Assembly: GCF_001598795.1 (NCBI RefSeq)
Contig: NZ_BCZP01000003.1
Span: 150,001 to 182,000 of the forward strand
Reading direction: 5' to 3'
Source: Delftia acidovorans NBRC 14950
Lineage (GTDB): Bacteria; Pseudomonadota; Gammaproteobacteria; Burkholderiales; Burkholderiaceae_C
Length of the DNA: 32,000 nt
In this document: piece after piece, positions 6,022-27,605 of the stretch
Layout: every line of letters starts with the position of its first letter
Numbering within the stretch: position 1 is the first letter of the stretch
Position numbers and translations under genes: made by a program
Notes under the pieces: model-generated
What the model was told of the DNA's origin: nothing
Databases searched by the model: none
Seen by the model: the letters and a program-made list of their open reading frames with translations, nothing else

Positions 6022-8124
<2,103 letters not shown>

Positions 8125-8469
8125 GAAAGGACTCCTGGGTGCTGATAAGCGTTGATGCGTGGATCTGCCGTGGGCTGGGATTCTCGCGGGGGTTGAATGA
8201 GGGTTGATGACAATTGGAATGTACGAAGACAATCGTACTATCTTCCGCAACTTCTTGCAGAACGATTCATGTTTTCACCACGCCATGCCCCTGTCTGCCA
8301 GATAACTGCCCGCGCCACGCCGCATCAGCGACGTGCGGCATTGCTTCCATGGCACAGTGGCGCCCCATCGACAGGATTGCGACTTGCGCAAGAAGGAACG
8401 CCACCAGCGTTCTTCCACAGGGCGCAGCGCGTTGCTGCAACCTGTTTGCACAAGTCCTGAGGACGATTC

Positions 8470-8857: not shown

Positions 8858-9241
8858 CTACCCTTTCACGGCAAGCGCCACAGCAACGCCCTCATCCGCA
8901 AACCGCTTGGCCGCCTTGAGCAGATAGCTCACGGCATAGAGGATGGGGTCATCGGCCTCGTCGCCATTCAGATGGTCCACCACCTCGACGGCATAGCCTA
9001 AATCCACCGCCGTGTCGTGCAGCAGGCCCAGCAGCTCCTTGTCCTGCGGCTCCAGCGACTGCGCCTGATCGGCCTTGGCGTAGTAGATGCGCAGCAGGTC
9101 GCGGCACACGCAGTTGATGGCCGTGACCTTGTGGCTGGCGTGCAGCTCCAGCACTTCGAGGGCAGCGCCCAGGTGCAGGACGGCGTCGATGGCCAAGTCG
9201 TCGAGGTTGGGTTGAGAAACGGTGCGGATGTCTTGATCCAT
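8858..9241 (-). CDS. hypothetical small, predicted helical protein
   Basis: Internal ATG at 9241 preceded by GAGGAGG. GC3 is high in this frame. I recognise no family. It is divergent from the XRE gene. Confidence 0.6.
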   Translation of the reverse strand: MDQDIRTVSQPNLDDLAIDAVLHLGAALEVLELHASHKVTAINCVCRDLLRIYYAKADQAQSLEPQDKELLGLLHDTAVDLGYAVEVVDHLNGDEADDPILYAVSYLLKAAKRFADEGVAVALAVKG

Positions 9242-9382
9242 CGAAGCCTCCTCTGATGATTGAAGCCTGCGTCTCGGCCTCGTACCAAGCTGTGCCCGAT
9301 GCAAGGCAGCAGCAGCCCAAGATCAACAAAAGAGTTAAATATAACGTGGTTTAAATTGCATCAAAAACTGACGCTCTTGCCC

Positions 9383-9670
9383 ATGCAAAAGCGTCCTGTC
9401 AAACGCGGCCGTCCAGTCGGCGCCACTTCATTCGATGCAGACATTGCCCGGGCTTTCGGCGCGGCGGTACGCGCCCTTCGCACCGAGCGCGGCATCTCCC
9501 AGGAATCATTGGCCAACCTCGCCGACATCGAGCGTTCTCACATGGGCAAGGTGGAGCGTGGGGAGCACATGCCCACGCTGGTCATCGTGTTCAAGATTGC
9601 GCGGGGGCTGGGGTGCAGTGCGGCGGAGGTGATGAGAGCAGCCGAGGACGTGCTGCGAGTTGTAAGTTAG
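9383..9670 (+). CDS. XRE-family helix-turn-helix transcriptional regulator
   Basis: From the ATG at 9383: ...LRTERGISQESLANLADIERSHMGKVERGEHMPTLVIVFKIARGLG, a Cro/C1-type HTH. Its stop coincides with the sharp drop in GC at 9671. Confidence 0.75.
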   Translation: MQKRPVKRGRPVGATSFDADIARAFGAAVRALRTERGISQESLANLADIERSHMGKVERGEHMPTLVIVFKIARGLGCSAAEVMRAAEDVLRVVS

Positions 9671-10036
9671 CGTTCGACATAGCGAAGGTCAGCAGTTAGC
9701 ACCAACCAAGCCAAGCCGAAGAATCAAGTTGGTCGCACTAGAAAAGCGTTGACTCACATGCTCGATACTCAGTGCACCATTTACAGTGTTATCTCCACGG
9801 TAGTTATGAAATTTTCTTCACCAAGAGCCAAGCTAGAGTAGCGTCAGATGGCTCACCGCAAGCCCTACTCGCAGGATTACTCCATGATGCATCTACAATC
9901 TTGCCTAACGCTGATATATTATCTAGTCAAAGTAAAAAACGCAGACAGTTTTTCCCACGACTTGCTTGAAGATCTGTCTTCTACATAACTCCACTGACTC
10001 TCTAGCAATTTTTATATTAACCTTGAAAGACAGAAT

Positions 10037-11068
10037 ATGAGCAGATACGCACTTTGGAATAATAAAGGAGGAGTCGGCAAGAGTTTCCTCACTTTCTCAC
10101 TTGCTTGCGAGTATGCGTTAGAAAACCCTGACGAGGATGTTCTGGTGCTTGACTTATGTCCTCAAGCCAATCTTACCGAGATGTTTCTGGGTGGAAAAGA
10201 GGCATCCGCAACGGCTCTCAATGATTTTTATGGAGAGAAACCTCGTCGCTCCATCGGAGGATATTTTGAAGCACGACTAACATCTCCATTTGTCTTACTA
10301 CCAAGTATCAGCGAATTTCTGTGCAAACCGTCGATTATTAATAATAATATTCCAGAAAATATTACCTTAATGGCCGGCGATAACCTGCTAGAGCTTTTGG
10401 CAGAAGCAATTCGAGGAGTCGCGCAACTTCCACTCCCATCAGACGCGTGGGCTAAAGTCATGCGCTGGCTCATTGATTTAGTCCGAACTTTTACAGAAAC
10501 AAGCACGGCGTCGGATGTTGTTACTTTTGTAGACTGCAATCCCAGCTTTTCAATGTACACGCAAATTGCCTTGTGTTCAGCCGAAAACCTCATAGTTCCC
10601 TTCACTGCTGACGACAGTTCTCGCCGCGGAATTGAAAACGTTTTCGCCTTACTTTATGGAATGGCATCCTCAGAGTTACAAGGATATGCTCGCCTTAGCT
10701 TTTCCAAGCGCTCGATGGATGAGGGAATCGATCTACCGCGCATCCATACATTTGTGAGCAATAGAGCCACATTCTATCGAGGCAAACCCAGCTCTGCCTT
10801 TGAAGCCAAAAGCGCCCCGATTAAAGAGTTGGTTAAAAACGCTTCCATTACTGGCAAACGGCACTTTGTAAACCATAGAAAGCAGTCAGATCTCTTTGCA
10901 GAAATGCCAGACTATCACTCTGTCGCAGTTGTGGCATCCTCTGAAGGGTGCCCTCTTTCCAAGATGCAATCAGGACACCATAATATTGACGGTGAAGTTG
11001 TACAAGTCAACCTAATCGCTATTAACAAATACCTAAAAGCCATTAACAAGCTCGTCCAAAGGCTCTAA
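10037..11068 (+). CDS. ParA/MinD-superfamily (SIMIBI) ATPase with a deviant Walker A
   Basis: 343 aa. It has WNNKGGVGKS (signature Lys10 and Lys15), VLVLDLCPQANLT (Walker A'/switch) and VTFVDCNPSFS (Walker B-like). It is longer than canonical ParA, with a distinctive C-terminal third. Confidence 0.85.
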   Translation: MSRYALWNNKGGVGKSFLTFSLACEYALENPDEDVLVLDLCPQANLTEMFLGGKEASATALNDFYGEKPRRSIGGYFEARLTSPFVLLPSISEFLCKPSIINNNIPENITLMAGDNLLELLAEAIRGVAQLPLPSDAWAKVMRWLIDLVRTFTETSTASDVVTFVDCNPSFSMYTQIALCSAENLIVPFTADDSSRRGIENVFALLYGMASSELQGYARLSFSKRSMDEGIDLPRIHTFVSNRATFYRGKPSSAFEAKSAPIKELVKNASITGKRHFVNHRKQSDLFAEMPDYHSVAVVASSEGCPLSKMQSGHHNIDGEVVQVNLIAINKYLKAINKLVQRL

Positions 11069-11670
11069 TGTCCTCTGCTGCACTGACAAAATTTAAAGAG
11101 TCGGTCATAGGTGCCCGAGTAATGCATAGCTTTGTTGGCACAACTAGCACAGCTAGTACCACTCAGGAATTCACCGATCAAGTCCTGCTCAAAGGCGGAG
11201 TTGCACTGACAGTAGGTTGCTGGGAAGGATACTTAGAGGAAGTAATTAAGGAGTTTGTATCCAAAACTCGTGTACAAGCTCATAGAAAAGCATGGACACT
11301 AATTGTCCAGTTTGAATCTCTAGTTCAGAAAATTACAGCCGAACTTAACACCCCTAGCTGGGAAAAAGCAAGGGAGCTAATTTACAATATCACGGGAATG
11401 GACCCCTATGCCTCCTGGATATGGACCCCAAAATTTAACACACAGAATGATACTCAAGCATTCATGAAAGGAATCATGGATGTCCGCCACTCCTTCGCCC
11501 ATGGTTTCGCCACTCCAAACAACATCCCTGGACTTAACAGTCCAGGAATTCTGGACTCAGCATATTTGCATGATGCAATATTGCTCCTAACCTTTCTGGC
11601 AGAAACCACTGACGAACTACTTCGACATGAACTTACCCATCGCCACGGATGCGCCACCGGCTGGAACTAA
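11068..11670 (+). CDS. hypothetical protein with an Rx4H motif (candidate HEPN-like RNase domain)
   Basis: 200 aa. Its start overlaps the upstream stop (TAATG). It has motif R140-HSFA-H145-G (DVRHSFAHG) in a predicted helical protein, with an upstream CWEGYLEEVIKEF helix. It has no TM segment or signal peptide. The family assignment rests on motif recognition only. Confidence 0.55.
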   Translation: MSSAALTKFKESVIGARVMHSFVGTTSTASTTQEFTDQVLLKGGVALTVGCWEGYLEEVIKEFVSKTRVQAHRKAWTLIVQFESLVQKITAELNTPSWEKARELIYNITGMDPYASWIWTPKFNTQNDTQAFMKGIMDVRHSFAHGFATPNNIPGLNSPGILDSAYLHDAILLLTFLAETTDELLRHELTHRHGCATGWN

Positions 11671-11940
11671 CCTCATATAATTTCAAATCATCCCCCTTTC
11701 CATAACAATTCAAAATCATGGAAATTTCAAACCCTCCACCATTAATATAAAAATATTTAAGCAGACATCAGATAAAATACGAGATTCCAATATACACATA
11801 TTTAGATCTTTTCTACCCAATGGATTCCGCTCTAGGAGATGTAATTGCACTTCATCCAATCGAAGTTGCAAAAAACAATTGACAAATTCTGTCACTCCCC
11901 CAAAAACCTTTCTACCCCGATGGTGCTGCTCACAACCACT

Positions 11941-12226
11941 AGCCGCTCCCCCGGGCCTTCTTGCATGTACAACACATGACGCCAAGCTATGGCAAGCAGC
12001 CACCACATGAGTGTCTCTCTAGGTTGTGACACTCACCGTCCCCTGACTGAGCATCACCCAGTCGACCGGCGATTCGTGCGAGATGCCGAGGTAGTGCCGA
12101 CTGGCGCGATGATGCTCTTTCTGATTGCGGGGGGATGCAGCTGCTGGCGAACCTGCTTCCGGCCGAGCGCTGGAGCGACCGATGCCTAGCCACAGTGAAC
12201 CGCAACTATATGATCCTGATGCTGCC
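11941..12226 (+). pseudogene. decayed copy of the promoter-proximal region and 5' end of the fatty-acid hydroxylase/desaturase gene at 15367
   Basis: It aligns by eye with 15332-15627: CCCCCGG(G)CCTTCTTGCA..ACA.GACATGAC ... TTCCGGCCGAGCGCTGGAGCGACCG ... GACCGCAACTA.A.G.TCCTGATGCTGC. It contains an in-frame TAG right after the core plus indels. Confidence 0.7.
12157..12181 (+). repeat. 25-nt identical core, left copy (TTCCGGCCGAGCGCTGGAGCGACCG)
   Basis: It is a perfect match to 15557-15581, embedded in otherwise clearly diverged homologous flanks. Confidence 0.9.
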
Positions 12227-12439
12227 CCGACTCAGTACACCAACCAACCTATGTAACCCACGGGCTTGGCTACTCCGACATGAATGTCAATCAACGAGCG
12301 TACATTAATGGCTGTATTCACTAGCGAGCAGAAATACTTCAACCGGCTGCAATGAATCATTCTCTGCAGGCGCTCTTGCCGACGCCAACGGGCTGCATAT
12401 TTGTTTTTTCCAATATTTGCTGTACAGCAAATATTTTGG

Positions 12440-13270
12440 CTAGTAAATTTCAAGGCCCGCCTTGCTCATAATTGCCTGAAAAATTTGATCATCCAATTCA
12501 CTGCTTAAACCCATACCCTCATCGGAGCAAAACGCGGCAATTGCTTTTTTTGTGTTTTGACCCACGATTCCATCTGGATCACCGGGTCGATAACCAAGGT
12601 AGATCAGCGCGCCTTGCACAGCACGGGCTCTAAGGTCTCTAGTGATGCCTGAGCTGAATTTATCAAATTCGTGCTCCAGCTTGAGGTGATATCCCCGCTC
12701 GGCATAATTTGGTCCATTATATCGGTAGGCGAATTGATCCCATCGCTCTTCACGCAGAAACTTATCCATTCCTTCATGCTGCATGAAACTAGCCATTGCG
12801 GAGAGTTGCATTGCCTCCGACTCGGCCATCTGCTCTGCCATCTGCGAAGCACTCTTGAAGCCTGATGCCTTCGCATTGAAACCCATCACCTGGCCCAGCC
12901 CCCAACTCGCACTCTGCATCGCTTTTTCTTCTTTAATACCCCGGCCACGGCACAAATCGATCGCTTCTTGCAAACGCACATATTCAGCCTCGCCCCCCTT
13001 GTAGTCCCCAGGAGTACTTGAACAAAGAAGTGGATGACTATCTGCGAAAGCTCCTTCAGTGAGTCTAAAGAAAACATGTTTCTCAAACAAGATTTTTGGT
13101 TTTCGCGTAGACAAGAATCCAAATCCTCGACTCTCGACAAGCAAAACAGCCCAAAGCTTTGGCATATCGAATGCGGGATCCATGCCTAATATTTCAAGAG
13201 CCGAGTGCATATCGCTTTCAACGAGCGGCTGTCCAACTCCAACAAATGTATTTAACGAAATATTTGGCAT
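12440..13270 (-). CDS. N-acetylmuramidase-family (DUF3380-like) peptidoglycan hydrolase with a C-terminal PG_binding_1-like domain
   Basis: 276 aa. SWGLGQVMGFN...FAYRYNGPNYAERGYHLKL matches the muramidase family as I remember it. The C-terminal LRARAVQGALIYLGYRPGDPDGIVGQNTKKAIAAF is a peptidoglycan-binding repeat. RBS is GAGGTG. There is no signal peptide. Confidence 0.75.
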   Translation of the reverse strand: MPNISLNTFVGVGQPLVESDMHSALEILGMDPAFDMPKLWAVLLVESRGFGFLSTRKPKILFEKHVFFRLTEGAFADSHPLLCSSTPGDYKGGEAEYVRLQEAIDLCRGRGIKEEKAMQSASWGLGQVMGFNAKASGFKSASQMAEQMAESEAMQLSAMASFMQHEGMDKFLREERWDQFAYRYNGPNYAERGYHLKLEHEFDKFSSGITRDLRARAVQGALIYLGYRPGDPDGIVGQNTKKAIAAFCSDEGMGLSSELDDQIFQAIMSKAGLEIY

Positions 13271-13422
13271 GATAACACCTCAAATAGTGGCTGCGGCCTG
13301 CTCTAAAAATATACAAACAAAAACTAGCGATTCATTGTTTGCAAAAACCAAATCTTTGAAAAAGATCCACAAGAGGACGGTATGCTATTTTCACCAATGC
13401 AAGTTCATAAGAAATCGCTTGG

Positions 13423-14142
13423 TCAAGGCAGTATTTTCGTCAACGGCCACGCAGCCTTCAGTTCATCTGGTGTACCGTTGAAGACATTAACATCAAGATC
13501 CTTCTTGGTTCCCGGGAGACGGATCTGCACCAGCAGCTCGCTGGAAAATTGCCACAGTGTGTAGCTGGGCCAAACACCAGTCGGAAAATCTATGACCTTG
13601 GGCTTGAACCGCGCGTACCAGAGAGGGGTATGAGAGAATACGCTGCCCTTGTACTTCTCGGAGATGAGTTTGGCACTTGAATGGTTCGTATACAGGACTG
13701 GGTAACGTCCAGTTCGAACCTTTACCCGCTCTATGAATACGATGGCTTCATCGACATTCATGAGCTTCTTGGACTTTGCATCCTCCAAGTCCAACGCTAT
13801 GAGTTCATCAGGGCCGGGCTTAACGGTGTCAATGTAGAAGTCAGCCTGCTGAAGAGGATTGCCGGCTACGCCCCAATGGTATGAGCCCCAGAGATATCCC
13901 CGTTTTAAAGCCTCTTCTTTGCGCTCCATATATGCAGGATCAAGGGACTTTGTACCTATAGTCGCCTTGTGTATCACAGCCACGACACGACGCTCTGTCG
14001 CAAGCTTTTCCCAATCAATGGGATTACTATAAAAGGGATCGATCACCAACGCTACACTGGTATCTTTCCACGGGGAATCGAACTCCGTACCGATTGCAGG
14101 CATGGACAAGCAAGCCGCGAGAATTGCCGCAATAAAGCGCAT
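13423..14142 (-). CDS. secreted GH25-family lysozyme (muramidase)
   Basis: 239 aa. It has an N-terminal signal peptide MRFIAAILAACLSMPAIG. Then come IDWEKL...VVAVIHKATIG...GSYHW...QADFY...IALDLED...PVLYTN...PLWYARF...TLWQFS...DVNVFNG, which is the GH25 motif order. RBS is GGGGGAG. Confidence 0.8.
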   Translation of the reverse strand: MRFIAAILAACLSMPAIGTEFDSPWKDTSVALVIDPFYSNPIDWEKLATERRVVAVIHKATIGTKSLDPAYMERKEEALKRGYLWGSYHWGVAGNPLQQADFYIDTVKPGPDELIALDLEDAKSKKLMNVDEAIVFIERVKVRTGRYPVLYTNHSSAKLISEKYKGSVFSHTPLWYARFKPKVIDFPTGVWPSYTLWQFSSELLVQIRLPGTKKDLDVNVFNGTPDELKAAWPLTKILP

Positions 14143-14760
14143 ACAGATCTCCCCCTTTTAGCTATCATCTACAGTACCACCCACATCGTTTAAGCGCAAC
14201 CTTCTTTTTTTCGGCACAGGAACTTTAGATATGACCTCTGTATTCCTAGGAATTTTCACAGTCTTATGTCAAAGAAGGATAAGTAGTGGACTTTTTCGGG
14301 GAGTCAGGGACCATCTTATCCCCCACGGTCTGTACTGTAGCAAGCCGCCATTGATTTTTTCTACTGGCTTACCCTTGCTGTGCATCTGGCTAGCGCCGCC
14401 AAATTAATTAGAGCACCCCATAGGATTGCCAGTTCCATGCTGCTTGCCAAAAGTAAAACTCAAGCAGCACCTACCTTTGAAGGGCACTCGAATGGTTCGC
14501 CCAATGATCCGCAGCGAAGGGAGCACAGTGCAGTAGAGCTGATGCCAGATCGGCGAGACAGTTGTGATCTTGACCTGCAAACTAATGCCCGAAATGACAG
14601 GGCGTCTACGGCAGGTTACGCTCGTTGGTTGCCTTCATCGAAGCAGATTGGCTGCATCGATCAGCACTTACCCTCCTAATAGGCGGCGTTGCAACCATAG
14701 ATAGCATGTGAAACGCACTTAACTACCGCTTAAGCGCTTTGCTTGAAGGAGAATATATGT

Positions 14761-15198
14761 ATGTCATCAAAGTTGCTACTCGAAGATGGTAGGGCACTCT
14801 GGCGCTCCAACCTCGGAAATTGGGGCATGTTGTATCTGATTTCCCAAGAAATTTCAGCGCCTGATGCACCCCTGCTAATTTGGCTCATCGATATGTCTAA
14901 TCGCGCATCACCATTCTGTGAATTTGATATTCAAGGCATTCCGGTTTCAGCACGTCAGGAGTTTGGGGCTTACGCATCCCGCGCTTGGGTGAAAATTCAA
15001 ATTAAATACGGAAGCAATACTTCGCCTCCAGACAACGCATATGCAGCGGAATATTTGCAGCATCTCATACGCATGCATGAAAGCATTGAGGTAGGCGAGC
15101 CGCCCTCGACCCTAAATGATTTCGACAAGACAATTGAGTACTGCGGAGCTCATGAAGACTTGGACACACTTTGGGCGGCGCCAGAAGATTACGTCTAG
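14761..15198 (+). CDS. hypothetical acidic cytoplasmic protein (possible immunity-type protein)
   Basis: The ATG at 14761 has AAGGAG 9 nt upstream. The track begins at an in-frame TTG at 14743. It is 145 aa and AT-rich, and I recognise no family. Confidence 0.55.
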   Translation: MSSKLLLEDGRALWRSNLGNWGMLYLISQEISAPDAPLLIWLIDMSNRASPFCEFDIQGIPVSARQEFGAYASRAWVKIQIKYGSNTSPPDNAYAAEYLQHLIRMHESIEVGEPPSTLNDFDKTIEYCGAHEDLDTLWAAPEDYV

Positions 15199-15366
15199 CC
15201 GAACTCGGCCGTTAAATCTCGAGCTCCATCAGTACCAGCTTTGCCAAGTGCACACGCGCCCCGAAGAGCTGCGCCCCCTCTTCGCACACACTCCCTCCAC
15301 ACCCCCACCCCATAATCCCGCCCGCAACCCCCAGCCCTCCCCCGGCCCTTCTTGCAGGCACAAGAC

Positions 15367-16491
15367 ATGACTTCACTGACCGAGCTGTGGCAGGCAGCCA
15401 TCACCTGGCTCGCCACCCACGCCGTAACCCCCACCGTCCACTGGCTGGACATCGCCCAGGCGGCCGGTGATCCGCGTGAGATTGCTGAGGCGGTGCTGAT
15501 TGCCGGGCTGCAGCTGTTCCTGATCGCGGGCGTGATGCGGCCGCTGGAGAGCCTGTTTCCGGCCGAGCGCTGGAGCGACCGGCGGCTGACCACGGTGGAC
15601 CGCAACTACACGCTGCTGATGCTGCTGGGGCTGTTTCCGCTGTTCAGTTTTCTGGTGCTGATGCCGTTTGCCAGCATGCTGGGCGGCGGGCCGGCGGCCG
15701 AGGAGGCGACGGGGCTCAAGCATTGGGTACCGTGGTTTGCGGACCATCCGGTGGCGCTGTTCCTGGTGTACTACGTGGTCTACGACCTGGTGTATTACTG
15801 GATGCACCGCGCCCAGCACGTGATTCCCTGGTGGTGGGCCATGCACAGCATGCACCACAGCCAACGCCAGATGAGCTGCTGGAGCAATGACCGCAGCCAC
15901 TATCTGGACGGCATGCTGCAGTCCTTCATCCTGGCCACGGTGGGGCTGGCGATGGGGGTGGAGCCTTCGGAATTTGCGCTGCTGGGGCTGCTGAGCGAGC
16001 TGGTGCAGAACTTCTCGCACGCCAATGTTCGGCTGCGCCTGGGCTGGCTGGGCCGGGTGGGTGAGCGCGTGCTGGTGGGCCCGCTGTTTCACCGCCACCA
16101 CCACATGCTGCGCGACCCCGAGCGGCCCACGCGCCACAACTGCAATTTTGGGCAGGTGCTGCCCTGGTGGGACATGCTGTTTGGCACGGCGCTGTACACC
16201 GACGAACCCGTGCGCCCCACGGGCGTGAGCGACCCCGAGGTGGATGCCGACAACGAGCGCGGGCTGGTGGCCATGCAGTGGCATACGCTCAAGCGGTTCT
16301 GGGGGGCGTTTCGCCGGCGCGATGGCTGGCGGCTGGGCGATGTGTCCTTCGGGCCCGGTTACCGGCCCATTCATGACGACGACGGGGCCCAGCCCCACCC
16401 TGCGGCCGGGGCGGCTGCGGTGACGGGGGCGGCCGGGGTTGCGCCTACGGCTCCAGGTTCGGCCGCATCAGCGCCTCGAACCAGTCGATGA
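15367..16491 (+). CDS. fatty acid hydroxylase / sterol desaturase superfamily membrane protein
   Basis: It has His boxes HRAQH, HSMHH and HRHHHM plus several hydrophobic segments. I prefer the ATG at 15367 over the TTG at 15352. The Ala/Gly/Pro-rich tail overlaps the LysR 3' end by 47 nt. Confidence 0.8.
   Translation: MTSLTELWQAAITWLATHAVTPTVHWLDIAQAAGDPREIAEAVLIAGLQLFLIAGVMRPLESLFPAERWSDRRLTTVDRNYTLLMLLGLFPLFSFLVLMPFASMLGGGPAAEEATGLKHWVPWFADHPVALFLVYYVVYDLVYYWMHRAQHVIPWWWAMHSMHHSQRQMSCWSNDRSHYLDGMLQSFILATVGLAMGVEPSEFALLGLLSELVQNFSHANVRLRLGWLGRVGERVLVGPLFHRHHHMLRDPERPTRHNCNFGQVLPWWDMLFGTALYTDEPVRPTGVSDPEVDADNERGLVAMQWHTLKRFWGAFRRRDGWRLGDVSFGPGYRPIHDDDGAQPHPAAGAAAVTGAAGVAPTAPGSAASAPRTSR
15557..15581 (+). 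repeat. 25-nt identical core, right copy, inside the intact desaturase gene
   Basis: It is a perfect match to 12157-12181, exactly 3400 bp to the left. Confidence 0.9.
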
Positions 16492-23642: not shown

Positions 23643-23882
23643 GTGGCAGACAGCATCGAGAAAGTCGCCATCATCGGCGGTAAGACGGCAACCTACGGTG
23701 GCGCCATCAGTGCCGTGGTCAGCGGGCTGACGATTTCCGAAATCGGCGTCATCGTGGGCATCATCGTCGGCGTGGTGGGTCTGCTGCTGGGCCAGTATTG
23801 GCAATGGCGCAAGGACCGGCGCGAAGAACGCGCGCTCACCGCCTGGCTGGAAAACGAGGCCGGTGGGGAGACCGTCCTATGA
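23643..23882 (+). CDS. putative class II phage holin
   Basis: The GTG at 23643 has AGGGAG 6 nt upstream. It is 79 aa with two hydrophobic segments (TATYGGAISAVVSGL and IGVIVGIIVGVVGLLLGQYW) and a charged tail RKDRREER. Its end overlaps the start of the endolysin ORF. Confidence 0.55.
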   Translation: MADSIEKVAIIGGKTATYGGAISAVVSGLTISEIGVIVGIIVGVVGLLLGQYWQWRKDRREERALTAWLENEAGGETVL

Positions 23883-24405
23883 AGTGGCCAGCAACATCAA
23901 GATTGCTGCAGGAGCCTCGGCGGTGGCCGTGGGGGTGGCTGGTCTGCTGGCTCAGTTCCTGCCCGTGGAGGAAGGCCGCAGGCTGGGCGCATACCGCGAC
24001 CCCATCGGCATTCCCACAATCTGCGAAGGCTGGAGCCGTGGCGTGCAGATGGGCGACCGCGCCACGCAGGCTGAATGCGACCTGCTGACCCGCCAGGGCA
24101 TACAGGAGGCCTGGGAAGTCTTCGAGCGATGGGTGCCCGCCCATGTGCGCAACGGCATACCTGACCAGACCCTGGCCGCCTTCCTGAGCTTAATCTACAA
24201 CGTCGGGCCAGGGCAGGCGGGCACCCCCGACGAAAGCCACATGTTTAGCGCGCAGGTGCCGCGGGGACTCAACCGCGCGCCGAGGGGGAACATGGGGGGA
24301 CGGATGCATATTCCTTCACCAGCCCCTTTCCGTAGTGCGGTTACGGCGCCCAAGACGGGCTTGAGCGGGTCGAATGCGGCTCAACCAATGGGGGAGCTGT
24401 CATGA
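23863..24405 (+). pseudogene. GH24 phage lysozyme with a SAR-like N-terminal segment. Homology is lost after about 24215 (C-terminal third replaced).
   Basis: It has a Gly/Ala-rich weak TM segment IAAGASAVAVGVAGLLAQF. Then come EEGRRLGAYRDPIGIPTICEGW...TQAECDLL...LAAFLSLIYNVGPG (E-x8-D-x5-T catalytic triad layout). The expected STLLRKLN... continuation is absent in all frames. Confidence 0.6.
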
Positions 24406-24658
24406 GCAGGCTATTCGCGTTGTCGCGCGTTTAAGTGGCCGCGCTGACTGACAGTCTGTCTATGCCGGTGCCTGGCACCGGAGCGATTGCAAAGTGGACT
24501 CTATGCCCGGCACCCGGACCGGTACGCGTACGGCCGACCTACTGCGCTGGGCTGAACGTCACTACCAGTCCAATTTAAATACAATAATCCTTGATCCTCA
24601 AGGATTGCAATTAACAAAAATTAATGACCAATGGGCCAAATCGAAATAAAGGCGCAAA

Positions 24659-25174
24659 ATGCATAAAATAAACCTGCACTCCGACATAATTCCAGGAAAA
24701 TCTGCTGCCGGACTTGATTTAGGGATAAATTTCAGTGAAATTAACGATTTAATAACTAATCCGATTCAATGGAAGAGGGAGGATGGACAGGTTCAGTCAG
24801 TCATATTAAACGAATCTGGATGGATTTTTGTTCCAACTAGAACAAATAATGCATCACCAGACTCTCCACATATTAATGGCCGTTATTATTACAACTTCGG
24901 ATCAATTGAACTGAATTTCAACTCAAGTGGAGATCTTGTGCTTATAGCATTATCAAATAAATATCAAGGCCTTTTCTTGAATTCAATTGGCATTGGTGAC
25001 AAATTAGCAAAAGTTGAAGATTTTTTCAAATTAAAATACGACGACATCGAAGAGCTTCATTATCCATCCGTCAATTCTGAAATTTCTGGAATAATTTTTC
25101 AAGCCGAAGAATGCTCTCTAGAAGAATCTCCAAACCAAGATATTTACAGAATTATAGTTGAGCGCTCAATATAA
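24659..25174 (+). CDS. hypothetical protein (AT-rich cargo gene)
   Basis: 171-aa ORF in strongly AT-rich DNA. It has no TM segment or signal peptide. I recognise no family. Confidence 0.55.
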   Translation: MHKINLHSDIIPGKSAAGLDLGINFSEINDLITNPIQWKREDGQVQSVILNESGWIFVPTRTNNASPDSPHINGRYYYNFGSIELNFNSSGDLVLIALSNKYQGLFLNSIGIGDKLAKVEDFFKLKYDDIEELHYPSVNSEISGIIFQAEECSLEESPNQDIYRIIVERSI

Positions 25175-25281
25175 CATTTATTGGCCATTTTTCTATTGGA
25201 TAAATAATATTCTCCTCACGGATTTCACAGTTAAGATGTTCAGTCCCACAGTGAGATGGTGCGAATGAAGTCTAAAGCGGC

Positions 25282-25737
25282 TTGGATCTTTTCCCCCATG
25301 CCTCGCAAATCGCCCGGAATGGTGTCTTCCACCTGAGCGCCTTCAGTGCGGGCCGCGAAATCTTGAGCTCTGTGTTTACCAGAGGCGCCAGTACGATTGG
25401 GCGTATTATCCCGGGTGGCTCTGCACGGGTGGGTGCAGCCGCCGTTTTCGAGTCTGGTGCTACTGCGACGCCGAAAGGCGGGCCAACGCTCATTAATGGC
25501 ATTTTGGTTTCAAGCATGAAGCTCCGCCCCAATGCCGAAATTTATGGCAAAGCCGTAACCCGTATAACAGCTGATATTTCTGTGCTGCTGCAAAAAGCAG
25601 GCTATAGCGCTGAAGAGTTGACGGAGTATAACTTTGTACGACTCACTGAGGGGAGTACGCCGCCCGAGTGGCTTCAAGCAGAGACGCGCTTGTCGAAACC
25701 TCTTTCTTACATTCTTTGCATTTCGTCAGCGCCATGA
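25282..25737 (+). CDS. doubtful ORF or gene fragment of unknown function
   Basis: It has a TTG start only, and the first internal ATG is at 25516. Composition is intermediate. There are no recognisable motifs. It could be a remnant. Confidence 0.3.
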   Translation: MDLFPHASQIARNGVFHLSAFSAGREILSSVFTRGASTIGRIIPGGSARVGAAAVFESGATATPKGGPTLINGILVSSMKLRPNAEIYGKAVTRITADISVLLQKAGYSAEELTEYNFVRLTEGSTPPEWLQAETRLSKPLSYILCISSAP

Positions 25738-25762
25738 GACCTCACTCCACAGAAAAAGACAA

Positions 25763-26686
25763 CTACTTTTCGTCTTTTGAATTATTAACGAATTTTTGAG
25801 CAATTGAAATTACGTCTTTCAAAGTCTTGATGTCAAGACTTCCATGACCCGCAGAACTAGGTCGATCGGGCCAAGTAAAGTCGCGCTCTAGCAATTTTCC
25901 AAGATGAGTCTCCAGTATTGAAGATGAATCACCTTCATCACATGCAAACTTCAACAACATAATTTTGTCAAAAATCGCTTTTATTTTCAATAACTCGATT
26001 GTCCCATCCACATAATTACGGTACTGACGCAGATACCACGCACTAATTATCTCGATAGCAAAAAATAATGAGGCACAAGAGACAACCCCAAAGATATGCG
26101 CATTAGAAAATCCATAAAAATGAAATATCACCTGCCACACAACAACGGAGACAAAGAAAAAAGATAGACCAAATAATGCATAGCCTCTACCTGCATCGAG
26201 CAACTCAGAGGCTTTTTCATCATACACCACAGACTGCTGCTGTAATGATTTAGTAATTTCAACTATAGCAGCTTTGAAACTATCAGGTGCTTTATTCTCT
26301 CCAATTTCAGCAGATCTTTTATCACCACCCTGGATATCCCCGCCCATAAGTGAGGCACGCCGAAACACATCTACGTCTGATATATTGCTTAGACTATTAA
26401 TGTATAAAGACAACCCAAAAATGGAAACCCCAGCACCACAGATTACCCAGAATCGCTCCGCAATAAAGACCCAAAACCCTCTTAACCCTTGTAAATCGTA
26501 AGAAAATACAGCCATAGCTGTGAAAATAAGACCAAACAGCATTGCTGAAAGACCTTGTATTCTCCGACTTCTCTGCCCTTTAATTCTTTCTACTTCATAG
26601 AGCTGCTGGGCAACATACTTTTTATTTAACTCTTCCCTTTGGGTCTTGAGTCTGTCAAAAATCTTATCATTATCAATTTCCGACAT
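25763..26686 (-). CDS. hypothetical integral membrane protein with two hairpin pairs of TM helices (4 TM)
   Basis: 307 aa. Its hydrophobic segments are LSAMLFGLIFTAMAVFSY, FWVICGAGVSIFGLSLYI, YALFGLSFFFVSVVVWQVIFHFYGF and IFGVVSCASLFFAIEIISAWYL. It has charged soluble N- and C-terminal regions and is strongly AT-rich. Confidence 0.7.
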   Translation of the reverse strand: MSEIDNDKIFDRLKTQREELNKKYVAQQLYEVERIKGQRSRRIQGLSAMLFGLIFTAMAVFSYDLQGLRGFWVFIAERFWVICGAGVSIFGLSLYINSLSNISDVDVFRRASLMGGDIQGGDKRSAEIGENKAPDSFKAAIVEITKSLQQQSVVYDEKASELLDAGRGYALFGLSFFFVSVVVWQVIFHFYGFSNAHIFGVVSCASLFFAIEIISAWYLRQYRNYVDGTIELLKIKAIFDKIMLLKFACDEGDSSSILETHLGKLLERDFTWPDRPSSAGHGSLDIKTLKDVISIAQKFVNNSKDEK

Positions 26687-26715
26687 ATTTACCTAAATCT
26701 CGGACAACAAACCAA

Positions 26716-26905
26716 TTAAAAAAGATCAAAACCGCCGCCCATTCCACCCATAAACAACCCGCCCACAGATACGCACCTGATGCACCCATTGAGCACCTCC
26801 ACAGTGCGCACATTCGGGTTGTCGCTCGTCACTTCCAACTGCCCATCAATGCGCCGCGTAACGCGCTTGATGAAAAGCTGCTCATTGGCAACCAGCACAT
26901 AGACG
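26716..26905 (-). pseudogene. C-terminal fragment of an S24 (LexA/CI-like) peptidase-type repressor
   Basis: The minus strand gives GGVYVLVANEQLFIKRVTRRIDGQLEVTSDNPNVRTVEV...IRCVSVGG. This resembles the terminal beta-strands of S24 repressors. There is no HTH or catalytic Ser region upstream. Confidence 0.5.
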
Positions 26906-27476
26906 CCACCCGGCCCGCGTCAAGCGCATAGTCCCAGGCCGCCCCAAGCTCTGAGCGCAGGCTGTTGGCCAGCACGGGCGTCTTGACGGCCACGCCTTCC
27001 AGCAGCGAGAACGCCATGCTGCGCCCAACGTCTGCCGGCTCCAGAGCGTGAATCTTGGTGGTGTAGTTGACCAACAGGCGCCGCGCTTCGGCGCTGCCCT
27101 TGGGCTTGCGGTGCCGCTCAACATGCCCCTGCAGGTAGTCCTCAAACAGATACCGCACGGTATAGATTCCGTCGCGGCCCCGCACATCGGATCGGGCTTG
27201 GGCGACAGCGGCTGCACGCCGCTTCTCCCTGGCCAGGTCCTCACCTGCATCACGTCTTCGCTTGAGCTGCTCCCACACAGCGAGCGCGCTGGGGTAGCTC
27301 ATCTCGGGCCATTGGCCCATGGCAATCTGGCGCATGTCGCCGTCCACGGGGCTCTTGTACCGATATGTCCATGTGCGCCGCGTGGCAGTGGCCACCAGGC
27401 GAAGGCCCGGGGCGTGATCGACAATAATGTGCTCCCCCGGCTCCAGCGACTTGGCCCGGCGTGCGTTGAAACTCAT
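26906..27476 (-). pseudogene. N-terminal half of a P4-like tyrosine integrase (DUF4102 arm-binding plus SAM-like domain); the catalytic domain is missing
   Basis: From the ATG at 27476 (RBS GGAGG): MSFNARRAKSLEPGEHIIVDHAPGLRLVATATRRTWTYRYKSPVDGDMRQIAMGQWPEMSYPSALAVWEQLKRRRDAGEDL... Similarity stops at ...WDYALDAGR, where the S24 fragment begins. Confidence 0.7.
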
Positions 27477-27605
27477 GGCGCCTCCGTATGCGGCGCAGGT
27501 TTCCAAATCGGCCCCAACCTGTTCGGCGTAACTTCTTCAAAAGGACGCCGAAAAACTTACGCCAAAGTGCGCAGTGTAGATGGGTTTAAGCGGGACATAG
27601 TTGGA

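Follow-up and report, generated by a model that had tools for sequence, protein, structure and literature searches.

A translationally coupled ParA/MinD-type ATPase–HEPN gene pair in Delftia acidovorans NBRC 14950, a plausible two-gene conflict module

The gene pair and its predicted products

The analysed stretch of Delftia acidovorans NBRC 14950 (the window; 32,000 nt, contig NZ_BCZP01000003.1, positions 150,001 to 182,000) carries two consecutive genes on the plus strand, which are the subject of this work. Gene 1 (10037..11068, +) encodes a 343-aa ATPase of the ParA/MinD (SIMIBI) fold, belonging to a subfamily referred to here as 'DxCPQ', and was assigned from its open reading frame (ORF), Pfam and Foldseek. 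Gene 2 (11068..11670, +) encodes a 200-aa stand-alone HEPN protein of Pfam family PF18735 (RiboL-PSP-HEPN), assigned using Pfam and an AlphaFold2 (AF2) model. Stop and start codons of the two genes overlap in TAATG at 11066–11070 (+), as read in the sequence, which indicates translational coupling. A previous interpretation made from the letters alone (the sequence-only reading) had described both ORFs, their overlap, the motifs NNKGGVGKS (residues 8–16), DLCPQANLT (39–47) and FVDCNPSF (164–171) in gene 1 and DVR140-HSFA-H145-G in gene 2, and all of these were found. Both ORFs are real genes and did not arise by chance: close relatives of gene 2 number 129, a profile search raises this to 964 clusters at 90% identity, and relatives of gene 1 run to thousands, with conserved length. 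At 50% identity, the hidden Markov model (HMM) search gave 592 representatives of the gene 2 family, the members of which are, nearly without exception, about 200 aa long and unfused; the length of the gene 1 relatives is uniformly conserved.

Gene 2 was matched by PF18735 with 32.3 bits, above the Pfam cut-off of 28.4, and the same family was matched by 71 of 71 aligned relatives, close as well as distant (best E = 1e-12). A few of the 71 also matched HEPN_Swt1, HepT-like_2 and PF18737 weakly. Only HEPN families were matched by gene 2 in Pfam, with no helix-turn-helix (HTH), ribbon-helix-helix (RHH) or ParB match. Judged by these profiles, gene 2 is a HEPN protein, as had been proposed. The predicted RNase active-site motif, V139-R140-H141-S-F-A-H145-G146 (11482..11505, +), is unchanged in 27 close relatives of gene 2. 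For the family as a whole, motif residues were counted in 103 full-length representatives, obtained by searching 1.84 billion representatives exhaustively with an HMM and without any motif pattern: R140 was present in 103/103, H141 in 101/103, and H145 and G146 in 102/103 each, and the two residues named as catalytic by the sequence-only reading are thus conserved among homologues. A further 80 genome loci came from a search in which the Rx4H motif was itself part of the pattern; motif conservation is circular in this set and was left uncounted for that reason. Position 53, which was compared with the acidic residue of HEPN helix 2, is E in 42, Q in 32 and D in 24 of the 103 representatives.

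The AF2 model of gene 2 is all-alpha, with a predicted local distance difference test score (pLDDT) of 93.4 and a predicted template modelling score (pTM) of 0.89, and the Rx4H motif lies at the C-terminal end of helix 126–145. Canonical HEPN domains have an insert between helices 2 and 3, and their helix 3 ends in the Rx4-6H motif (PMC3710099). The modelled helix order of gene 2 appears to fit this topology, with the motif likewise closing helix 3. The Rx4H signature had therefore been recognised correctly in the sequence-only reading, whereas its placement in helix 4 was not upheld.

Outside the motif, the N-terminus M-x-S (11068–11076) of the HEPN protein is nearly invariant across phyla, S3 being present in 75/103 representatives and in all members of one alignment (A3); Y55 and T95 are also highly conserved. 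S3, Y55 and T95 are candidate sites of interaction or modification.

Gene 1 was matched by AAA_31 (8.9e-16) and CbiA (2.3e-8) in Pfam. Matches in NCBIfam were confined to Walker A and stayed below threshold. The best Foldseek matches of its model, which is of moderate confidence, were Soj (2bek), McdA (6nop), ParA (8ray), FleN and MinD at probability 1.0, with target-normalised TM values of 0.48–0.67. Three nucleotide-binding motifs were located: the deviant Walker A K10-G-G-V-G-K15-S16 with the signature lysine K10 (10064..10084, +), invariant in the alignments; Walker A'/switch I, D39-L-C41-P-Q (10151..10165, +), with D39, C41, P42 and Q43 invariant; and Walker B, V-T-F-V-D166-C-N-P (10520..10543, +), with D166, C167, P169, S170 and F171 invariant. 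Invariance of K10, K15, D39 and D166 extends over Proteobacteria, Cyanobacteria, Actinomycetes, Chloroflexi and Poribacteria. Past the ParA core, a C-terminal extension of about 110 aa (10724..11065, +) carries the conserved motifs HTFVSNR, PSxAF and PDYH; it is kept across phyla and in a phage sister clade described below, and model confidence in this region is moderate. The best-matching solved ParA/Soj/MinD chains have 232–273 aa, against 343 aa in gene 1. Pfam, Foldseek and alignments agree on a ParA/MinD fold for the gene 1 ATPase, the C-terminal third of which is unusual, in line with the earlier description of a deviant Walker-A ATPase.

The second Asp of the ParA/Soj motif DxDPQ is replaced by the invariant C41 across the subfamily, the phage sister clade included. 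In HMMER alignments, C41 stands opposite the second Asp of VDCDPQ (3pg5), VDLDPQ (4pfs) and IDKDLQ (2oze). A Walker A' with two Asp (DxD), which serves as a mark of ParA/MinD proteins, was consequently not found in gene 1, where D39 is the only Asp and Cys takes the second place. The best solved-structure match by sequence, PDB 3pg5 (a 361-aa ParA-like 'uncharacterized protein'; E = 3.4e-9, residues 1–202), resembles gene 1 in its NNKGGVGK N-terminus, its length and a weak PxxHS-like C-terminal match, but keeps the canonical Asp. We take this second Asp (Soj D44, MinD D40) to be the activator of the hydrolytic water, the mutation of which presumably traps ATP-bound dimers. Because C41 replaces this residue, a DxCPQ ATPase would be a slow switch or sensor and not a hydrolysis-driven partition motor; the invariance of C41 suggests that ATP hydrolysis is slow or partner-dependent.

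Linkage, genomic contexts and the partition question

In 79 of the 80 HEPN-seeded genome loci, a full-length ATPase homologue (42–85% identity) was located immediately upstream on the same strand, with intergenic distances of mostly −4 to +15 nt; the lone exception is a HEPN fragment. The reverse search gave the same picture: all three ATPase-seeded loci, located on contigs outside the HEPN-seeded list, had a PF18735 protein of 200–201 aa downstream (3/3). Pairwise identities among the ATPases rise and fall with those among the HEPN proteins (matrix correlation r = 0.935, Mantel p = 0.001). Clustering of all ORFs within 5 kb revealed no third shared gene beyond lineage-level synteny. The pair is spread over more than six phyla and occurs, among others, in Burkholderia, Ralstonia, Stenotrophomonas, cyanobacteria and actinomycetes, with Cyanobacteria well represented. 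As a two-gene module, the pair is real, widespread and tightly linked, and its partners are inherited together.

An upstream XRE/HTH_3 gene, present in the window and at two Comamonas loci, was considered as a third component and rejected, the encoded proteins not being orthologous. A 307-aa truncated ATPase in one assembly was dismissed as a gene-calling artefact because the underlying DNA is identical. The ATPases least identical to that of the window (42–43%) were encoded at six Nostoc loci, all of which retain the HEPN catalytic motif. One of these ATPases (L019) is full-length but deviates in motifs that are invariant elsewhere, with NTK in place of NNK, CSPSF, PFTAAESSLH in place of PFTADDSSRR, and an insertion in PDYH.

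The genomic neighbourhoods of the pair are variable and often mobile. In the window, it is situated in a low-GC islet (approximately 9700–15250) together with two lysozyme-type genes, which bears out the AT-richness of the pair and its island setting next to lysozyme genes reported before; GC is 0.38–0.52 here, compared with about 0.68 for the host chromosome. In a P2-like prophage of Burkholderia seminalis, 1.7 kb separate the pair from the portal gene. The gpA-gpQ locus is described as the P2 defence hotspot in two papers (PMC9122126, PMC13586616), and the position of the B. seminalis pair, on the portal-proximal side of this locus, fits a hotspot reading. In Comamonas terrigena, the pair is carried within an element with a serine recombinase, a D5-type primase and an integrase, and in an uncultured Comamonas it stands with MazEF and CcdAB between nrdAB and a porin gene, i.e. 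in a toxin-antitoxin-rich islet. The pair of B. pseudomallei belongs to an insertion sequence (IS)-rich island. In Microcoleus (two loci), the pair is placed between two large nonribosomal peptide synthetase (NRPS) genes on the same strand (C-A-MT-T and C-A-T-TE). Among 149 immediate neighbours at 42 loci, integrases, DNA methylases, ResIII, AriA-like ATPases, Fic/SoFic and Mrr recurred in 2–4 neighbours each; these counts are descriptive, and because they have no background control, the defence-type neighbours are only suggestive.

In Ralstonia, housekeeping genes flank the islet formed by the pair, which the assembly collection has indexed in 149 blocks. This arrangement bears on a non-conflict explanation, in which the pair would be a housekeeping system, for instance one for ParA-mediated positioning or regulation of an RNA-processing enzyme; the positioning of cargo is indeed a common role of ParA/MinD proteins. 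The patchy distribution across phyla, the variable neighbourhoods and the foreign GC of the Delftia islet speak against such a function, as do the prophage, integrative element, IS and toxin-antitoxin contexts and the insertion between the Microcoleus NRPS genes, and we regard it as improbable.

The order of the genes resembles parA-parB, the ATPase has a ParA fold and matches the PHROG 'ParA-like partition protein', and three AGACAG copies are present upstream of gene 1 (9943, 9974 in inverted orientation, and 10028). On these grounds, a true ParA-ParB-parS-like cassette was considered, in which gene 2 would supply a novel centromere binder or adaptor. The three copies, one of them inverted, had been pointed out in the sequence-only reading and were found, but their possible role as a parS-like site was not supported. 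AGACAG occurs 10 times in the whole window, with 10.4 expected, which corresponds to chance frequency; upstream of homologous loci it was missing in 16/17 cases, with one copy at the seventeenth, and the upstream regions are unrelated. AGACAG was hence rejected as parS or operator. Among 72,556 plasmids, the HEPN gene occurs on only 3, each of them a Ralstonia replicon of about 1.9 Mb; the other loci are chromosomal islets and prophages. Furthermore, gene 2 is assigned to a HEPN family with an invariant catalytic motif and has none of the DNA-binding matches of a ParB-type partner, and the ATPase has Cys instead of the second Asp of DxDPQ. The partition explanation is thereby largely refuted, and we give it hardly any credence; the earlier statement that the pair does not fit a partition cassette agrees with the rarity on plasmids and the chance-level AGACAG count.

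A search of IMG/VR with the ATPase yielded 68 loci, of which only the four closest and one partial locus had a HEPN gene downstream. At about 60 phage or prophage loci, a sister ATPase of about 339 aa with 38–42% identity over the full length was encoded without a coupled partner; it shares the Walker motifs, D-x-C-P-Q and the C-terminal region with the HEPN-linked ATPases. The gene is located approximately 210 nt downstream of a cI-like repressor gene (HTH_3 + Peptidase_S24) at no fewer than 24 (at least 24) of these loci, with N-like antiterminator, cII, O and P genes nearby. The same cI-adjacent arrangement is found in the isolated Pseudomonas phage phi297 (NC_016762.1, 15492–16544), where the product is annotated as 'ParA-like partition protein'. 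No sister ATPase was found in E. coli complete genomes by megablast. In lambda, the slot between cI and N is the rexAB position. The rexAB slot is an accessory position that is expressed in lysogens and is typical of exclusion genes. The cI-adjacent solo clade therefore supports a conflict role of the ATPase subfamily.

The same clade raises the alternative that the ATPase, and not the HEPN protein, is the key actor: it would be the primary exclusion or sensing factor, acting on DNA or phage processes, to which a HEPN protein was added in one clade. The solo genes, at least 24 of them directly after a cI-like repressor and one in phi297, and the fact that the ATPase is the better-conserved partner favour this explanation. 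In the HEPN-linked clade, however, the two genes are hardly ever found apart (79/80) and their translation is coupled, so that the HEPN protein is not dispensable there. Overall, we consider the ATPase-first explanation unlikely.

Related systems and proposed function

Anantharaman et al. (2013, Biol Direct 8:15; PMC3710099) described a gene dyad, ParA/Soj-like ATPase plus HEPN protein, and predicted that it is a toxin-antitoxin system in which the ATPase serves as antitoxin. The statement, in the sequence-only reading, that surveys of the HEPN superfamily had noted ParA/Soj-like neighbours is thus confirmed by this source, and its label 'undescribed' was too strong, because the dyad had already been described and its toxin-antitoxin nature predicted in 2013. 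The present pair resembles that dyad in its composition, a SIMIBI ParA/Soj-type ATPase gene beside one for a small Rx4-6H HEPN protein, and in the roles predicted for the two proteins (HEPN as RNase toxin, ATPase as regulator or antitoxin). Cyanobacteria are also well represented, which the naming of the family after a Microcystis gene would lead one to expect. It differs in classification: the 2013 dyad was filed under the MAE_18760 HEPN family, whereas PF18735 was matched by 71/71 members of the present family and PF18737 (MAE_28990/MAE_18760-like) weakly by 3/71 (best E = 0.0085). The Ribo L-PSP-HEPN entry in the 2013 table reads 'operon with ParB', not ParA (PMC3710099). The present pair may be the 2013 dyad, classified differently, or a second, parallel association. 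Two points are new: the Cys at the second Asp position of DxDPQ, and the solo ATPase sister clade beside cI in lambdoid phages.

Compared with ParABS, MinDE and McdAB, the present pair shares the ATPase fold, the signature-lysine Walker A and the order of an ATPase gene followed by a small partner gene. Its partner is a HEPN protein and not a DNA-binding or ATPase-stimulating adaptor, the locus has no parS and is found off plasmids (3/72,556), and the ATPase is distinguished by the Cys and by the additional C-terminal part of about 110 aa. In PrrC, RloC and further HEPN anticodon nucleases gated by an NTPase, a HEPN RNase is restrained by a P-loop NTPase and released on infection (PMC3710099). 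Control of a HEPN RNase by a P-loop NTPase may be common to these systems and the present pair; the NTPase of PrrC/RloC is, however, a fused ABC (SbcC/Rad50-like) domain linked to restriction–modification (R-M), whereas the present one is a separate ParA/MinD-type protein without a conserved R-M partner. PF18735 is listed in a review table for PD-T4-2, PD-T4-5, PD-T7-3 and ApeA. Gene 2 is not hit by the PADLOC models of these four systems.

The HepT-MntA type VII system is likewise a tight bicistron of an upstream nucleotide-using enzyme and an Rx4-6H HEPN RNase toxin, and a few members of the present family match HepT-like_2 weakly. There, the partner is a minimal nucleotidyltransferase (MNT; MntA AMPylates HepT), while here it is a ParA/MinD P-loop ATPase, and the present HEPN protein is of another family, larger and equipped with a helical insert. 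An enzymatic toxin-antitoxin system of this type, in which the P-loop protein would modify the HEPN protein covalently (e.g. by phosphorylation), is among the options of the 2013 paper (PMC3710099). The ATPase gene occupies the position of the MNT gene in MNT-HEPN pairs, and the hydroxyls of S3, Y55 and T95 offer possible acceptor sites. On the other side, the ATPase has the signature lysine of ParA-type dimer sandwiches and not a kinase-specific feature, and phosphotransfer looks less likely because Cys replaces the second Asp of DxDPQ. Covalent modification of this kind is therefore given a low probability.

We hold it probable that the two genes form a conflict module that is complete in itself, moves horizontally and works in the manner of a toxin-antitoxin or abortive-infection system. 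HEPN membership, the invariant Rx4H motif, the intact ATPase motifs, strict linkage without a third gene and mobile contexts argue for it, together with the cI-adjacent sister clade and the 2013 toxin-antitoxin prediction; selection on both catalytic centres is evident from the alignments, and features of partition are missing at the locus. A function in conflicts is thus plausible. Gene 2 would be the effector, a predicted HEPN endoribonuclease whose Rx4H motif is under strict selection and whose activity would be toxic to the cell, and gene 1 its obligate regulator, a ParA/MinD-type ATPase expected to form nucleotide-dependent dimers. HEPN RNases work as dimers with a composite active site. 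In the proposed mechanism, the ATPase would bind the HEPN protein directly, and its ATP-bound or free state would set whether HEPN protomers pair. The RNase would be silent in the healthy cell and would be freed or assembled once infection or stress, as the presumed trigger, alters the state of the ATPase, upon which translation would stop. Depending on the direction of control, the ATPase may act as antitoxin or as activator.

Several results weigh against a conflict module. In 94% of pairs, conservation is higher for the ATPase than for the HEPN protein, an unusual pattern for an antitoxin. Type II antitoxins usually bind DNA and regulate their own expression, but a DNA-binding or autoregulatory domain was evident in neither protein in the Pfam scan. 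The HEPN gene was found in 0 of 50,697 sequenced phages and is rare in IMG/VR (4 loci). Many of the 149 scanned neighbours are housekeeping genes, and the widespread, housekeeping-flanked Ralstonia pair could have a domesticated, non-defence role. No family of PADLOC-DB v2.0.0 matched either protein at E ≤ 1; this result also agrees with the earlier statement that no named defence system has this composition. In the searched literature, no experimental work on the dyad was found, PMC3710099 being the only paper that deals with it. Taken together, the interpretation put forward in the sequence-only reading is partly supported.

A wider and more tentative proposal, which we think possible but less than even in probability, is that 'DxCPQ' ParA-like ATPases are unrecognised infection or energy-state switches in conflicts, of which one clade would gate a HEPN RNase, making up a new class of abortive-infection system under a ParA-type regulator, and the sister clade would work by itself as exclusion factors from the rexAB-like position next to cI in lambdoid prophages. 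If the module works as outlined, it would add a ParA/MinD dimerisation switch to the regulators known in HEPN immunity (ABC ATPase, MNT and CARF). As a compact two-gene system in Burkholderia, Ralstonia, Stenotrophomonas, cyanobacteria and actinomycetes, it is directly testable, and the Asp-to-Cys change and the cI-adjacent solo clade (phi297) provide handles on the signal that a ParA-type protein may sense during infection. The concept is not new, as the dyad was predicted in 2013. With neither an experimental follow-up found in the searchable literature nor a model in PADLOC-DB v2.0.0, the pair nevertheless offers a tractable target, which the Asp-to-Cys signature, the strict cross-phylum linkage and the solo clade make well defined for experiments.

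Further features of the window

The two lysozyme-type genes of the low-GC islet are a Muramidase + PG_binding gene (12440–13270, −) and a GH25 lysozyme gene (13423–14142, −). They are not a conserved part of the module, as no neighbour is kept family-wide. A gene 2 copy of identical sequence is annotated on a 6.8 Mb contig of Delftia acidovorans. The window further contains fusA, a 742-aa ORF at 6022–8250 named from its translation, and mutS; tRNA genes were not found in the window.

Upstream of gene 1, a perfect 8-nt inverted repeat, TCTGTCTT / AAGACAGA, is present at 9973–9980 and 10027–10034, its second arm overlapping the expected position of the gene 1 ribosome-binding site. Homologues are without this repeat, which could be a local operator or a chance occurrence. 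Downstream of the HEPN gene, the region 11671–12439 comprises about 770 nt of AT-rich DNA without a convincing gene or Rfam match, and the Rfam scan of 9000–15500 gave nothing credible. A 13-nt direct repeat, AATTTCAAATCAT, occurs three times in this region (11679, 11707 and 11723). The GC profile of the islet is interrupted by a short bump at 12000–12200, which may mark the junction of two acquired segments.

A second low-GC island (23800–27500) adjoins mutS and contains a Phage_lysozyme gene (23863–24405), three ORFs without Pfam match (24659–26686) and the sole integrase trace of the window, an N-terminal fragment (Arm-DNA-bind_3) at 26829–27506. This island looks like a decayed integrative element.

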